From NCBI GenBank assembly GCA_951406725.2, contig OX597824.1, positions 32,922,001 to 32,986,000 of the forward strand: a stretch of DNA of 64,000 bases. Reading direction: 5' to 3'. The notes under the pieces are model-generated. The model saw only the letters and a program-made list of their open reading frames with translations. It had not been told where the DNA came from and did no database searches. A program made the position numbers and the translations under genes. This DNA comes from Octopus vulgaris. Lineage: Eukaryota. Shown in pieces: positions 413-64,000 of this stretch (positions within the stretch are counted from its first letter, which is position 1; each line of letters opens with the position of its first letter).

Positions 413-1683
413 CGAGGGGCGTTCAATAAGTAATGCCCCTGACCCACTTCCCATAGCAGTAGAGCAACGAAACTTGGCACAGTTATTAGTCTTTTTCTAC
501 ATAGGAACCATTCAGAGTTACACATTTCTACACAGACCGTTTTTGTAGAAGACCCCAGCTTGGTCCTCCAACCACGACGTGACTTCAGAAATCAAGGCTG
601 CATCATCTGGGAAACGCTTTCCTTTCAAAAACAACTTCATGATTGGGAAGAGGTGAAAATCAGAGGGTGCAAGGTCAGGAAAGTAGGGGGGATGGGGGAG
701 GAGTTCATAGCCGCACGCCTGTGCTTCTGATCTGGCAACACGCGAGTTGTAGACCGGAGCGTTGTCCTGCAGGAGGAGGATGCCTTTGCTGATCTTGCCC
801 CGCCTCTTGATTTTGATAGCTTCTCTTAATTTCCTCAAAAGTGAAGCATAATAGGCTCCGTAATTGTGGTACCCTTTGCCAGGAAATCTGACAGCACTAC
901 TCCGTCCTGGTCCCAGAAGACTGTGAGCATGACCTTGCCAGCGGAGGGCTGCACCCTTGCCTTCTTTGGAGGAGGTGAGTCACGGTGCTTCCACTGCATT
1001 GACTGGGCTTTGGTCTCTGGATCATAGTGATGGACCCAGGTTTCATTCTGTGTAATCAGTCTTTTGAAAAATTTTGATTCATCTTCTTGGCACATCTCCA
1101 AATTCATCCTCAAGCACTCGATGCGTTCTTGCTTCTGGAAAGGTTTGAGCAACCTGGGAATCCATCTGGCAGACACCTTTCGCATATGCAAATGGTCATG
1201 AATGATAGTTTCCACAGACCTGGTACTAAACTTGACCTCATAGGCTATTTGGCGAATAGTTATGCGTCGATCTTCCAAAATGGCAGCCTCAACTTGACGG
1301 ACAGATGCCTCATCAATGGCAGAAGGGGCGACCAGATCTGGGAGCTGTTTCCACAGAGTTCCAACCATGTTTGAATTCACGATGCCAGCGTTTTACAAGG
1401 TCATATGATGGGGCATCATCACCATAAGTTACTTTCATTTCATCAAAAGTCTCCCGAGGTGTGCGTCCTTTCAAATACAAAAACCGGATCACTGCTCAAC
1501 ACTCAACAGGCTCCATTTCACACTTGACTCAGTTCAAACACCTGTATATCAGAAACCACAATTAGTTCAGAGCTGTAATTTGCCACTTAATCTATAGAGA
1601 TATAAATAATTGCACATGTAAATTTTCAGCTAGATCAAACAACTGCAAGTGGGTCAGACGCATTACTTATTGAATGCCCCTCG
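413..1683 (-). mobile_element. Mariner (DD34D) DNA transposon, near full length and decayed
   Basis: TA|CGAGGGGCGTTCAATAAGTAATGC...GCATTACTTATTGAATGCCCCTCG|TA terminal inverted repeats with TA target duplication. Confidence 0.95.
518..1516 (-). pseudogene. Mariner transposase pseudogene
   Basis: ATG at 1516 (MEPVEC*AVIRFLYLKG...), premature stop and frameshifts near 1325 and 855. Motifs WIPRLL, ITQNETWVHHYDPE (first catalytic D changed to N), LLQDNAP and HPPYFPDLAPSDF. Confidence 0.93.
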
Positions 1684-43125: not shown

Positions 43126-43499
43126 TTATTCTTCATAATTTCTTTAAACTTCAAACTGCTATTTGCTTATATTTTCATAACGACTTTGAATTTTGAATTT
43201 TTTGTTTTTGTTCGACTTGTATGATGGGACACCTGTTTGGAATGATTGTGTGAAGCCCTGACAAGGGTATATGAGCACTTATAAACACATATACACATCA
43301 CAAACTTTTAGTTTCCACTCACTAGGCTTTGGCTGGTTGTAATAGAAGACACCTGCCCAAGGACTGGACTTGAACGTCTTTACAACATGGCCATACCTGC
43401 ACTTGTCTCAAAAGATTATTCACTCATAACATGAACTGAATTCTGTCTTACCATTTCTTTTCACTCTCACACTCATAAATGTCAACCATTTATATCAGG

Positions 43500-45920
43500 G
43501 GATCACTTGGCTCATCCATTGATTAAGAGCAAGGCAATCCACATAAATTGCAGGATCCAGTGAACATTGACACTTTGAATGCTCAGTGCAACCCAGGGAT
43601 CCCATTATCTTCAGGCTTGGTCTGGTCAAGTGGTGGAGAATCAGGAGTCATGGCAAAAAGCATGGGTGGTGATACCATAGTAAATCTGGTGGGCATACAA
43701 GCCAGATTGACGACATCCTCATCAGAAACTGAGATAAACAGATGCTTATAAATGCAAAGTCCTTTCCCAGTGAGGAATGTACAACTCAACATAAGTTAGT
43801 GGTTAGCAACTTCAGACTTAGAGCTAGATGGACACGGCAGTGCAAACCAGTTTGGAAAAGGAAATTACAAAAGCTCAAAGAACCACCAAACAGTCAGAGA
43901 TTTGGAGACATCATGATTAAAGTATATGATGAAAAAGAGGAGGTTGTGATGTATAATGTAGAGGACAACTGGAAGTTTTTACAGGACAACCTTCTAAAGG
44001 CTGTGACTTGGTGGTGGAACAGTGTGATAGACAGAGCCATAAAAGCAAAGAGACAGGTTTTAACAGATTGGAGAAACGGAGACAGCAAAGTGCTGTAACA
44101 GGTAGCCTAAAGGGAAGCTAAGTGACAGGATTATCTAGTAAGGGCAGAAGCAGAAAGGAAGAGGTTTGCCAATCTCTTACTGTGTGAACATCAGAAATTT
44201 GATGTGTTCTGGGTTGCTAGACAGTGTGTCAGAGAGAATCAAGATGTTGTGGCAGAGAATAATGGATGAACAATGGCATTCTTGCACTAAGTGACACTGA
44301 AAAGAAAGAGGTGTGGAAGTGTTACTATGAGAAACTATTAAATGTGGAGAACGAATGGGAAACAGGTAGTCTCCCTTATGGGAAGCCAACAGAAGGACTG
44401 GCAGTTTTCAAACTGACAGCAGTATGATAGACAAGGCAATTAAGGAGTTACCACTGGTCCATTGGGAGTTACCACTGAAATGCTTAAAATATCTAGCAGA
44501 ATAGGACACAGCTTAGTCACCTGTATAGTTAATCAGGTTATTCAGGAAGGTATTATCCTTGATGGCTGGTGCAGCAACATTATAGTCAGCTGCTACAAAG
44601 GTAAAAGAGATGCCTTAAATAGAATTACAGAAGCATCAAATTGCTAGACCAAGTCATGAAAGTTATGGAAAGAGTTATAGCTCAGTTAATTACGAACTGA
44701 ATCAGATTAGATGAAAAGCAACTTGACTTTGTGATGGGGAGAAGTACTACTGATGCTACCTTTATAGTCAGACGACTGCAGAAGAAGTATTTGGTTAAGA
44801 ACAAACCATTGTATTTGGTATTTCTTGACTTGAAGAAAGCCCTCAACAGAATATCTGCTACGTGATATGGTGGGCTTTCAGGAAGCTAGGGGTTGACAAA
44901 TGGCTTGTAAAAACTGTACAGGCCATGTAGAGAGGTTCTGTCAGTAAGGTGAGAGAGTTAACCAGGAGTATAGTGACGTATTTAGTATACAGGCAGGTAT
45001 TCATCAGGGTTTGGTTCTCAGTCCCCTGCTATTCATCATTGTCCTCCAGGCCATAACAGAGGAAGTCAAGATTGGCTGCTCCTGGGAACTGTAATATGCT
45101 GTTGATCTTGTTCTCATAACAAATTCTGTAACAGAACTAGAAAAGAAATTCTAGGTGTGGAAGCAAAATCTGGAATCAAAGGGCTTTAAAGTTAACTTAG
45201 CAAAGACCAAGGTTCTAGTAAGAAAACAGACAGGACCCTATTCCAATCAGGTAAATGGCCCTGCTAGTATGTAGGAAAGGCATGAGCAAGAATTCCATAC
45301 AGCATACCCAGTGTAAGCTAAGGACACACAAGTGGTGCTGTGGAATATAGGAAGGTTATCAGAGAAAGTAGTGCTTGTATGTGGAAGATGCACAGGGACA
45401 ATAAAGAATACAGATACATAGAGGTAATGAATAATTTCCTCTAACTAGGGGACCTAATTAGCAGTGGAGGAGGATGTATGGAAAGTGTAATAGCCAGAAT
45501 AAGAATAGGATGGAGAAAATTCTGAGGGCTTTTACACTTGTTGGCAACCAAAGGTCTCTCTAAGTGAAAGGAAGATTGTAGGGTGATTGTGTATGAACAG
45601 CAATGCTACATGGTAGTGAATCATGGGTTCCACTAGATGTGCAAGGTCAGTGTAAATGTGTGACAGAGCAGTAGTGTATTGAAAGAAAAGTTAGGCATAA
45701 GGGGATTTAGATGCAGTGTACAAGAGAGAAGACTGCACTAGCTCAGTCATGATACGCATATGGACATGGACAGTTGTATGAAGAAGTGTCAATCACTGGA
45801 AGTTGTGGAAGTGGGAGACCCAGGAAGACATGGAACAATGTATTGAAGGTTGCTCTCAAGACATTGAGCCTTTTGAAGGAAATGACAAAGGACCAAGATA
45901 CTTGGCACCTAGCTGTTCTC
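43500..45920 (+). mobile_element. Decayed RTE-clade LINE (APE endonuclease and RT remnants)
   Basis: Fragments SQIDDILI...EECTTQHKLVV, WWWNS, GRSTTDATFIVRRLQKKY, FLDLKKA, GIHQGLVLSPLLFIIVL, YAVDLVL and GRPRKTW, with many stops and frameshifts. Confidence 0.9.
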
Positions 45921-48371: not shown

Positions 48372-48917
48372 ATCACTCTTAGTTTTGCCAACTGTACAGA
48401 AGACGCTTTAGTTGAAATAGTTTAACACCAAAGTATGTCTCCTGCTTTCTTCAGATGATTTTTTTAGTGTCCCTTGCCTATCAAAAGATGCTAAGAGTGA
48501 CGAATTAGTGCTTCAGCTGTAGAAACTTTAGCTTTTGACACTTTGATAAATAAAGGACACAAAAATTATTTTCTCTTTCTGACAAAGAAATCAGTCTAAA
48601 TCCTCTTCCTCATTGTCATCGTTATCATTGGTATCATCATCTAAAGTCCATTTTCATGATGGCATAGGTTGGACAGTTTGACAGGAACTGCATCAAGTTA
48701 CATAGTCTGTTTTTGGTATGGTTTCTACAGATGGATGCCAAGCACTTTAAAAAGTGTACTGGATGCTTTTAATGTGGCACCAATACCAGTGCTTTTTATG
48801 TGGTACCAGCACCAGTGCTTACTATGGGGCACCATCACCAAAAATATGTTGAAATTCTTATTCCAAGAACATATGAAGTTCAGAACCTTAATACATTATC
48901 AAATAATTACAACTTAC

Positions 48918-49099
48918 TCTTGCTGATGTTTCTCAGCATCCCATTCTCTTCGCCATTCTCCTGAAGCAGATTTTTGTCTCTCAATTCTTTCTTTGTCAAC
49001 TCGGTCTCTCTCTGCTTTCCATTCCATATATTGGCGTCTCTCACGACCTGTCATCGATATAGACATCTCCATCTTTGTCGGAGGAGTGGAATTGAAACT
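48918..49099 (-). CDS. CCDC9: CCDC9-like conserved-domain exon (182 nt, phase 0-2): SFNSTPPTKMEMSISMTGRERRQYMEWKAERDRVDKERIERQKSASGEWRREWDAEKHQQ
   Basis: ttaatag|AGTTTC...CAAGA|gtaagt. Closely resembles the vertebrate CCDC9 motif SMTGRERxEYxxWKxERExIDxERxxRxxxxxGxWRREWDAEK (DUF4594), recognised from memory. Confidence 0.93.
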
Positions 49100-61835: not shown

Positions 61836-61928
61836 CAAAGACTTTGGTCGTTCTTTGACTCTGTTACCTGGGCCTTTGCCACGTATAGGTGGTTTTGGTC
61901 TCCTTTTCACTTCCAATTCAGAAAGAAT
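61836..61928 (-). CDS. CCDC9: CCDC9-like gene, first visible exon (93 nt, phase 0-0): ILSELEVKRRPKPPIRGKGPGNRVKERPKSL
   Basis: Minus strand tttcag|ATTCTT...TCTTTG|gtatgt. Only phase 0 is open, and the phase fits the next exon. Upstream exons lie outside the window. Confidence 0.75.
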
Positions 61929-62679
61929 CTGAAATATTCAAATTTGAAGATGAGATGAAGAAACAATTCAATCCACAAATATTTTACCCAAGATTCCATA
62001 TCCAACAATACTGAGTGGGAAATCATTATTTTTTTTTTAATAATGATTTCCCACTTTTCTTTTTACTGTAACCAAGGAAATTATTAGTACATTGCATGTT
62101 TCAAATAAAGCAAAGTCACCAGCAAATATAAGAAGGAAATCACATTTGCTAAAAGTTGTTTAACCTCTTTTAAATAAAAATGGGTAAAGTTAAGGTAATT
62201 TAATTTCTGGAATCTTCTCTTAAAAGTATTTATTTTAAACAGAAAATTAATTAATTGTATATTTTGTAAACTCCCACCCTATGCATGTATGTATATGCAT
62301 ATGTATGTGTGTGCACATGTGTGCATGTACACACACACACATGCACACACAAAATCTGCCAGAAGATAATATTCATTTAGACACCTTACTATTCCTAAAT
62401 TATAAGTCAAAAACAGAGGTGATAAAGCAACAAACTTAATTTGATACAAGATTGGAAAAACTGCAACAATAATTAAAACAACGCTGACATTTAGATTCAC
62501 AAGTTCCACTCATAAAGTGTTCATTAACCACAGCAACATAACTCAAACAACAATCAAAAGTGTATGTACCAAACAATGAACTTTTATTCTGATAGAAATA
62601 TTTCTCTATTTCCAAATCAGTTTATTCTTATTTCAGTTCAATTGTTATCTTATGTTATAGAAGAGAAATAGGTTATTTC

Positions 62680-62971
62680 ATTTTGGGATTTGGTTTGCAA
62701 GATTCGTTATATGAGTTCGTGTGTTGAAGCATATTCTGTTGTGTTTGGGGAGAGTCATTTTCTTTTTGTGCTTTATAATATAACACACTCATCGGTTAAA
62801 TTCCCACTTATTTCTTATTTTTATTTTCCTAAAGTCACGACTATTGAAAAGGTTGCAAGATGCAACAAAAATTTTAAGAAAATAAAAATAAGAAATAGGT
62901 GGAAATTTTACTGGTGGGTGTGTTACATTATAAGGCACAAGAAGAAAATGACTCTCCCCAGACACAACAGA
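62680..62971. mobile_element. Asymmetric fold-back element, family A, with 16-bp target site duplication
   Basis: Direct repeat AGAAATAGGTTATTTC at 62664-62679 and 62972-62987; inverted arms; degenerate hammerhead at 62841-62877. Confidence 0.85.
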
Positions 62972-63237
62972 AGAAATAGGTTATTTCTCCACTTAACTCT
63001 TTGGCATATAAGCCGGTCACATTTGGTCCAAATAGTCTACATGATTTATATACAAACCAGCCAGATCTGATCCCTCACACTTACCCTACAATGTCATTCT
63101 AAAAATCAACAATCCCATTGTCAAAATCTCAAAGCCTCAAGATAATGCATGGTTAATTTAAAGCAATGTAAATAAATAAATTTTAAATTTGACAGAGTAA
63201 TCTGAATGCTAAAGGGTTAAAGTTAATTTTAAATTTC

Positions 63238-63420
63238 GTTTATGTATTTGGTTTGCAAGATTCTTTATATGAATTCGTGTGTTGAAACATATTTTGTTGT
63301 GTCTGGGGAGAGTCATTCTGTTTCAATGCCTTATTAATTAACACACTCACCAGTTCAATTTCCACTCACTTATTTTTCTTCTAAAATTTTTGTTGCTTCT
63401 TGCCACTTCTTCAATAGTTG
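63238..63420 (-). mobile_element. Family A single-arm copy with degenerate hammerhead (UUGAAGA core, 63381-63416)
   Basis: Colinear with 62686-62833. Confidence 0.7.
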
Positions 63421-63689
63421 TTCACTATATTCTATTGAAGTATATTTCAAAAACATATTTTTAAATGAAATTTTTATGCATCAGAACAACTGATTAGATG
63501 CCTGCTCTTCAGATGAGAACATGTTGAAAGTAAGGCTGCTCTAGTACACACAACCTTCTTGTAATACTGATTCCTGCTGTGGGTAACAGTTTTTATATAA
63601 CTCATTTTCCTTCTCCTAAGGGAAAACATAGGAAATATAGAAGTCAAAATTACAAGCTCATAAAAATACTTAATACATATATTTATAAG

Positions 63690-63950
63690 AAATTAAAATG
63701 ACAAGAGAATAAGAAATTGTCATGAACTTCATTAGCTTACAGCTGTTTCTGCTACAAGGTGCAATGCACTCACTGTTGAATGCTTGTGTATCACCCTGTA
63801 GCTTCATCAGAGCTTTGTAAATGAAGTTTAATTTCCTTATTCCTTGTCATTTTAATTTATTACTGCTCTGTACTCAACTGACGCTTTGCTCTGAAGCATA
63901 TGTAGAGTTCCAGCACCAGGAGATTAGTGCAGCTATGCCTAAGTGAAATA
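63690..63950. mobile_element. Asymmetric fold-back element hosting the 63734-63814 hammerhead
   Basis: ATTAAAATGACAAGAGAATAAGAAATT...AACTTCATT against AATGAAGTT...AATTTCCTTATTCCTTGTCATTTTAAT, plus a tail of about 90 nt. Confidence 0.7.
63734..63814 (-). ncRNA. Type-I hammerhead ribozyme motif with canonical core
   Basis: Minus strand agct-CTGATGA-a-GCTACAGGGTG...CACCTTGTAGC-a-GAAACAGCTGTA-agct. 11-bp stem II, palindromic stem III, GUA triplet. Confidence 0.8.
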
Positions 63951-64000
63951 ATAATAATAATAATATAGATAAATAGATGTACAGACGGATAAGTGTACAA

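Follow-up and report, generated by a model that had tools for sequence, protein, structure and literature searches.

A hammerhead motif in an intron of a CCDC9-like gene of Octopus vulgaris, probably a copy of a Penelope-like element end

A hammerhead ribozyme that lies in sense orientation within a gene raises the question of whether the gene makes use of it or only carries it as part of a mobile element. Such a motif is found on the minus strand of the window analysed here, a stretch of 64,000 nucleotides of Octopus vulgaris DNA (contig OX597824.1, positions 32,922,001 to 32,986,000). The preferred reading, to which a probability of about 0.8 is given, is that the motif belongs to a dispersed repeat as one of its copies, that it likely represents the hammerhead from a Penelope-like element (PLE) end of Neptune type, and that it is predicted to be a largely silent passenger in an intron of the CCDC9-like gene. 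Judged from the DNA, the hammerhead is real and of a known kind, and the PLE-type insertion that holds it is decaying, with cleavage as a prediction. An intact-looking sense intronic hammerhead is expected in the octopus genome from its repeat content, and the present case adds one octopus family to the known PLE hammerheads.

The motif and its host gene

The initial annotation had placed a hammerhead on the minus strand near the end of the window (Table 1), and a real type I hammerhead motif was confirmed there by its sequence, by its folding relative to shuffled sequences and by its membership in a repeat family; self-cleavage is predicted. The invariant core (CUGANGA, GAAA and UH, with three helices of which helix I is open) was completely present in the window copy. 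The annotation that all core nucleotides are intact held for these invariant bases but not for the R10.1-Y11.1 pair beside the core, where an A on each side precedes the first G-C pair. The usual G10.1-C11.1 position is an A-A mismatch in the window copy and in the majority sequences of all three subfamilies of the repeat, a natural core-adjacent variant at the base of helix II. Folding placed a 5-nt bulge between proximal stem I and nine further intramolecular pairs, and the 30 nt within stem II, described initially as a loop, folded as a bulged hairpin and not as an open loop.

A chance match or an assembly artefact has next to no probability. The loose core pattern is by itself poor evidence, being mildly enriched (2 matches in the window against 0.39 expected, with 7 of 100 shuffles reaching 2), and Rfam gave no hammerhead match at the gathering score or at E <= 10, as would be expected of a spurious motif. 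However, the folding of the minus strand was far better than that of shuffles, with z = -5.25 over 106 nt and z = -10.87 over 173 nt and 0 of 200 shuffles equally good in either case, and hundreds of homologous copies retain the helices. Because the strand folds better than shuffles and the motif belongs to a repeat family, it is not due to chance, a possibility that the repeat-family data refuted. Contigs from a DNA run, possibly made from the assembly's own sample, were identical to the assembly over 63372-63724 and also crossed the inversion junction described below, which argues against an artefact.

The host gene was recognised from a match of PF15266 (DUF4594, CCDC9) to the minus strand at 48923-49063 (E 4.8e-13). 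Two of 16 octopus proteins were aligned to the window and the next 58 kb, and the mapped exons spanned 93231 to 21719. Two of them, with GT..AG ends, flank the hammerhead (Table 1), and by this protein homology it was shown to lie on the sense strand inside a 9.6-kb intron of the CCDC9-like gene, in agreement with the initial annotation; the intron is called from exons of homologous proteins, not from reads over a host exon-exon junction. In three runs presumed to be RNA, the unique intron part at 63444-63659 had 0 cover and the pieces over the motif were from related copies, which is evidence neither for nor against. The upstream exon has a weak GTATAT donor, is missing from Argonauta protein P0007 and may be alternatively spliced.

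Several other features were seen in this region. A degenerate 5.8S rRNA-like fragment (43487-43635, plus strand, 49.1 bits) lies within an intron of the host gene, and another repeat of high copy number, distinct from that of the hammerhead and with inverted pieces inside it (62672-63430), shares the intron of the hammerhead. Reading frames at 521-1392 (minus) in the window and at 104877-105932 (plus) past its end resemble what we take to be remnants of mariner-type transposases.

Table 1. Coordinates of the hammerhead, the insertion that carries it and the neighbouring host exons, numbered from the first letter of the window
Feature	Position	Strand	Basis or remark
Direct arm, 5'-truncated 3' end of element	63685..63833	minus	82-83% identical to L015, L028, L083
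Inverted copy of element 3' tail, long end	63820..63960	plus	sequence comparison
Type I hammerhead motif	63734..63814	minus	sequence reading and folding
AGCU, 5' arm of proximal stem I (4 bp)	63814-63811	minus	sequence reading
CUGAUGA core box, then extra A at 63803	63810-63804	minus	sequence; identical in three subfamily majorities
Stem II arms, 11 bp, enclosing 30 nt	63802-63792 and 63761-63751	minus	sequence reading
Extra A	63750	minus	between stem II and GAAAC
GAAAC	63749-63745	minus	core box
AGCU, loop 3	63744-63741	minus	loop of 2-bp stem III; 8-nt palindrome 63746-63739
GUA cleavage triplet	63740-63738	minus	predicted cut between 63738 and 63737
AGCU, 3' arm of proximal stem I	63737-63734	minus	sequence reading
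Distal stem I, 63820-63828 paired with 63733-63725	63725..63828	minus	folding; native to hammerhead family
Host exon with DUF4594/CCDC9 match	48917..49099	minus	PF15266; named octopus proteins match at 100%
Host CCDC9-like coding exon, immediately downstream of hammerhead-bearing intron	61836..61931	minus	protein homology
Host upstream exon, past window end	71591-71535	minus	protein homology

The repeat family and the conservation of its core

The copy number of the family, a check proposed with the initial annotation, showed that the hammerhead belongs, as one of the copies, to an old, dispersed repeat and is not a gene-specific element. A 181-base query gave 1,419 first-look, unverified candidates in the genome; among the 40 that were scored, the best other matches had 79-93% identity. 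An exact core pattern had 51 genome matches and a pattern outside the core had 289, with 0 in the reversed control for each. Over the motif, DNA contig depth summed to 83,698 (against 40.5), a figure that does not give the number of copies and was not taken to do so. A working set of 103 distinct copies was assembled, of which 82 contained a full hammerhead; 70 of these fell into three clusters (39, 23 and 8), and the 12 singletons were left out. A metagenome scan gave 0 matches, and a literature search, outside of which many subscription papers lay, found no paper on this octopus family. In one copy (L007), the upstream part of the element is broken, about 290-400 nt upstream of the match, by a stretch that presumably resembles 5S rRNA.

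The initial annotation had named a lack of core conservation among paralogues, together with a lack of cleavage, as what would refute it, and between subfamilies the core was found to be unchanged. Between the majority sequences of two subfamilies (33 and 13 copies, picked without reference to the core), 0 of 21 sites in the core and stem III differed, compared to 15 of 57 other sites (p = 0.008). A comparison of three subfamilies gave 0 of 21 and 28 of 69, but took in copies picked by the core pattern, so the inference was placed on the former test. The proximal helices of the three subfamilies differ by three changes, each of them a G-U/A-U swap that kept the pairing. The constancy of the core between subfamilies, together with these swaps, indicates that the ribozyme fold mattered while the family spread.

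After insertion there was no sign of selection on the core, and decay was neutral: in 48 inserted copies, 47 of 526 core positions had changed (8.9%), compared to 296 of 2,852 in the rest of the motif (10.4%, p = 0.35). Two observations speak against this: all 11 core bases were retained in 22 of the 48 copies, with 14.4 expected, an excess that could be explained by mixed copy ages, and the window copy belongs to the better-kept ones. Its 81 nt contain 5 changes, which places it at rank 4-7 of 34, and the three changes in its stem II all hold or improve the pairing.

These features bear on the alternative that the motif is a domesticated intronic ribozyme regulating production of the CCDC9-like mRNA, of the RECK type known from amniotes. 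Amniote intronic hammerheads such as that of RECK are likewise of type I and within an intron of a protein-coding gene (PMC6155905, in its available portions), and the orientation, intronic position and intact core of the window copy would all suit such a role, as would a double change in its stem II from U-A to C-G and a further change from G-U to G-C. However, each half of the double change is common alone (CA in 6 and TG in 6 of 48 copies), intact cores are frequent in the family (the 22 of 48 above), the core decays neutrally across it, and the canonical loop 1-loop 2 geometry is missing. In addition, the RECK-type hammerheads are conserved across species, whereas the octopus motif belongs to a repeat whose copies, in their hundreds, decay neutrally. 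Domestication is therefore considered very improbable, and the motif continues to be read as a passenger.

Structure of the insertion and its relation to Penelope-like elements

In the insertion, which is 0.27 kb long, a 5'-truncated element end meets its own tail copied in inverted orientation. The direct arm starts about 95 nt before the cut site and stops at a short end 53 nt after it, with AT-rich DNA next, while the inverted arm extends to a long end, at element positions of about +145 to +155. The arms join within an 8-9-nt stretch common to both arms of stem I, with 7 nt lost, and one contig of the DNA run (as above, possibly the assembly's own sample) crosses this junction, over 63738-63896, with 2 differences. 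The common stretch suggests a template switch at the junction. Because the tail copy is inverted, the hammerhead is surrounded by an outer inverted repeat of 33 nt (63686-63718 with 63830-63862). Across the family, an inverted copy was found directly upstream in 27 of the 103 copies, that of the window included, and a microsatellite at the 3' end in 43 of 103, compared to 379 of 3,090 control windows. The two classes of end were first distinguished by eye; a census of the 103 copies gave 20 short, 40 long and 43 unclassed ends, the last because profile ends blur into repeats. Shared sequence extended upstream for at least 500-800 nt and then gave way to TG/TA repeats.

This structure is consistent with a PLE reverse transcriptase/GIY-YIG enzyme that would have started at two fixed points of the element RNA and copied it into AT-rich DNA, yielding a short-end direct arm and a long-end inverted arm joined at the stem I repeat. 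Comparable elements were found in the same genome. A search for GIY-YIG domains gave 148 matches (6,136 candidates, 150 scored), and at the loci read a Cys-rich linker precedes the GIY-YIG domain, with a 781-aa ORF carrying RT motifs at one of them; the name Neptune-type given to these comparators comes from the linker and not from an RT tree. At three loci (L188, L194, L196) a hammerhead end leads into ORF1 and then the RT ORF, and at two others (L200, L201) a short-end direct arm is combined with a long-end inverted arm. The ORF-linked hammerheads have a palindromic stem III and are followed after about 55-65 nt by a (TA)n-bound end, so the layout of the window copy is that of ORF-bearing Neptune-type elements. 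A partial tandem of pLTR-ORF-pLTR was seen in another family (L194, L196) but not in that of the window.

Published elements resemble the family in several respects, here as given in the available portions of the papers cited. The EN+ PLEs of Neptune type share with it, as do the five loci just named, 5' truncation, an inverted 5' copy, a tail at one end only and microsatellite targets, with the short end following the hammerhead after about 55-65 nt (PMC8557442), and the same kind of architecture is given for PLEs in PMC11167929. The type I hammerheads of PLE pLTRs described by Cervera and de la Pena (2014, PMC4209133) are alike in their long helix II and short proximal helix I, in the extra nucleotide between A9 and G10.1, in the small palindromic helix III, and in occurring mostly as single, dispersed, truncated copies, with inverted pairs and predicted dimer activity. 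The octopus family differs from these in that another extra A, its second, separates C11.1 from G12 (supplementary alignments of that paper may show a double-A variant), in a helix II of 11 bp with a distal hairpin, and in that no ORF was linked to it. Its tail of about 90-100 nt, rather than the 30-40 nt of the PLE papers, counts against the PLE reading. It also differs from the ORF-linked families seen in its own genome, which have other 3-8 pairs where the window family has the canonical C3-G8.

The ORF-linked families deserve some description of their own. At L188-L196, L199, L200 and L201 they have altered cores: U3-A8 (UUGAUAA), A3-U8 at L201, and GCAA instead of GAAA at L200. In the young family of L188, L194 and L196, a separate ORF1 starting with MPAKK overlaps the 781-aa RT-GIY-YIG frame, which is still open in many copies.

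Neither an RT nor an endonuclease was found for the window family, and the label "Neptune pLTR" is applied to it on architecture for this reason. No ORF for either was found in the 103 copies with flanks of about 1.5 kb or in 19 loci of 9 kb, and no family hammerhead stood behind the ORF at 50 (30 + 20) of the 148 GIY-YIG matches, 16 of them also examined as longer stretches; taken together, this sample is too small to prove absence. The walk upstream ended where similarity fades into TG/TA repeats at 500-800 nt, a search with the upstream part returned low-complexity matches, and the sole exact match to the long-end pattern had no ORF following it, as judged by eye. Neptune-protein matches beside two family copies (L090, L148) were rejected as parts of other insertions. 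At one GIY-YIG locus (L176), such a hammerhead lies on the opposite strand.

It is possible, although doubtful, that the family never coded for protein and was instead a retrozyme-like non-autonomous parasite, a microsatellite-rich unit of about 1 kb that relied on PLE enzymes for its movement, possibly in the form of an RNA circle. The lack of an ORF and the way in which the shared upstream sequence dissolves into TG/TA repeats agree with such a parent, and animal retrozymes are derived from PLE pLTRs in the accessible text of a preprint (bioRxiv 10.64898/2026.07.22.740005). Metazoan non-LTR retrozymes such as axolotl HHR_Amex2 are also alike in being of type I with a 2-bp helix III and a tetraloop (PMC7229834 and the same preprint), and HHR_Amex2 has a likewise mismatched helix II base (U-U) and cuts better as a dimer (PMC7229834). 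However, the defining tandem was not found, as none of the 103 loci had another complete hammerhead on the same strand within about 1.5 kb, and one near-identical same-strand pair, 1.66 kb apart, is split by unrelated DNA; the unit is also longer than the 150-450 nt of non-LTR retrozymes. The long end of all three subfamily majorities has ATG-CCT-AAG, like the MPAKK start of Neptune-type ORF1, and ORF-linked copies should in any case be rare in an old family. A retrozyme-like parent would change the label of the parent but leave the status of the window copy unchanged.

The near-identical members of the same-strand pair (L225 and L226, at G000:C1:137754962 and 137756622) have exon-like DNA between them. 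They could pair in cis, though both have lost the loop-3 palindrome.

Predicted folding and the cut site as a candidate splice donor

Folding predicts that the PLE-type copy in the window is poorly active as a monomer. Its active monomer fold lay 3.5 kcal/mol above the MFE, pairing probability was about 0 for stem III and 0.28 for proximal stem I, and the core CUG paired with the loop-3 CAG at 0.45-0.58. Distal stem I did form within the monomer, with 7 of 9 pairs at a probability of 0.93-1.0 and the end pairs at 0.67-0.81. At standard state, a two-strand cofold resembling a double hammerhead had -84.1 kcal/mol, compared to 2 x -37.6 (-75.2) kcal/mol for a pair of monomers. These values, from nearest-neighbour folding that leaves out tertiary contacts, suggest that the hammerhead depends on a dimer. 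The initial proposal that self-complementary stems I and III favour intermolecular pairing thus stands for stem III, which is weak and palindromic and for which the cofold favours the dimer, but not for stem I: since distal stem I forms within the molecule, its palindromic AGCU is no argument for pairing between molecules.

In the multi-unit RNA of the element, two hammerheads would join through their palindromic stems III, and the resulting dimer would cut, perhaps assisted by the element's protein. A dimer mechanism with low activity is given for PLE hammerheads in PMC4209133 and protein-assisted cutting for an anole element in PMC11167929, both in their available portions. In the host pre-mRNA, a lone copy would have no such partner and would mostly take inactive shapes. 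The 122 kb covering all mapped coding exons of the host contained a single copy of the family, so that there is no partner in cis and cutting of the host pre-mRNA is unlikely; the initial suggestion that nascent CCDC9 RNA is cut as a dimer is not supported by this result.

Slow cutting of the host pre-mRNA by the lone copy as a monomer, an unselected side effect tolerated by splicing, is unlikely as well. No invariant core base is missing, the pairing of stem II and of distal stem I has a probability near 1, the energy gap to the active fold is small, and the long inverted repeat insulates the domain; moreover, efficient cutting by monomers is possible for invertebrate retrozyme hammerheads whose helix III has 2 bp (PMC7229834, in part). 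On the other hand, the low probabilities for stem III and proximal stem I and the A-A mismatch at the base of stem II stand against a monomer, and the PLE hammerheads tested so far are poor cutters without a dimer or protein, as far as the accessible parts of PMC4209133 and PMC11167929 go.

The GU of the cut triplet also starts GUAAGC, a word resembling a 5' splice site (63738..63750 region, minus strand). A quite improbable but specific proposal is that the GU at the family's cut site is a candidate 5' splice site of an intron of about 115 nt. Splicing would then destroy the ribozyme and make mRNA, unspliced RNA would keep the dimer-activated, A-A-capped hammerhead, and U1 over the cut site would mute sense intronic copies. 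The candidate intron has GUAAG at the triplet, a branch-like CURAY word and CAG right before ATG-CCT-AAG. In three sets of long-tailed copies, counted without a chance control, GTAAG was at the cut site in 12/17, 7/12 and 7/7, a branch-like CTRAY was present in 12/17, 9/12 and 1/7, and YAG stood ahead of the ATG in 11/17, 11/12 and 2/7. GTAAG was not common to all ORF-linked families, and its presence at the cut site may be a simple consequence of ribozyme constraints. The read comparison, which covered 15 of 31 joints, speaks neither for nor against the candidate intron: just 19 bases separate its 3' splice site from the skipped repeat. The literature searched, with many subscription papers outside the search, contained no paper in which the cut site of a PLE holds a splice donor. 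If real, the overlap would tie intron retention in PLEs to control of the ribozyme. An intron that overlaps a PLE hammerhead is described for D. virilis in the accessible part of PMC4209133, at the other end of the motif.
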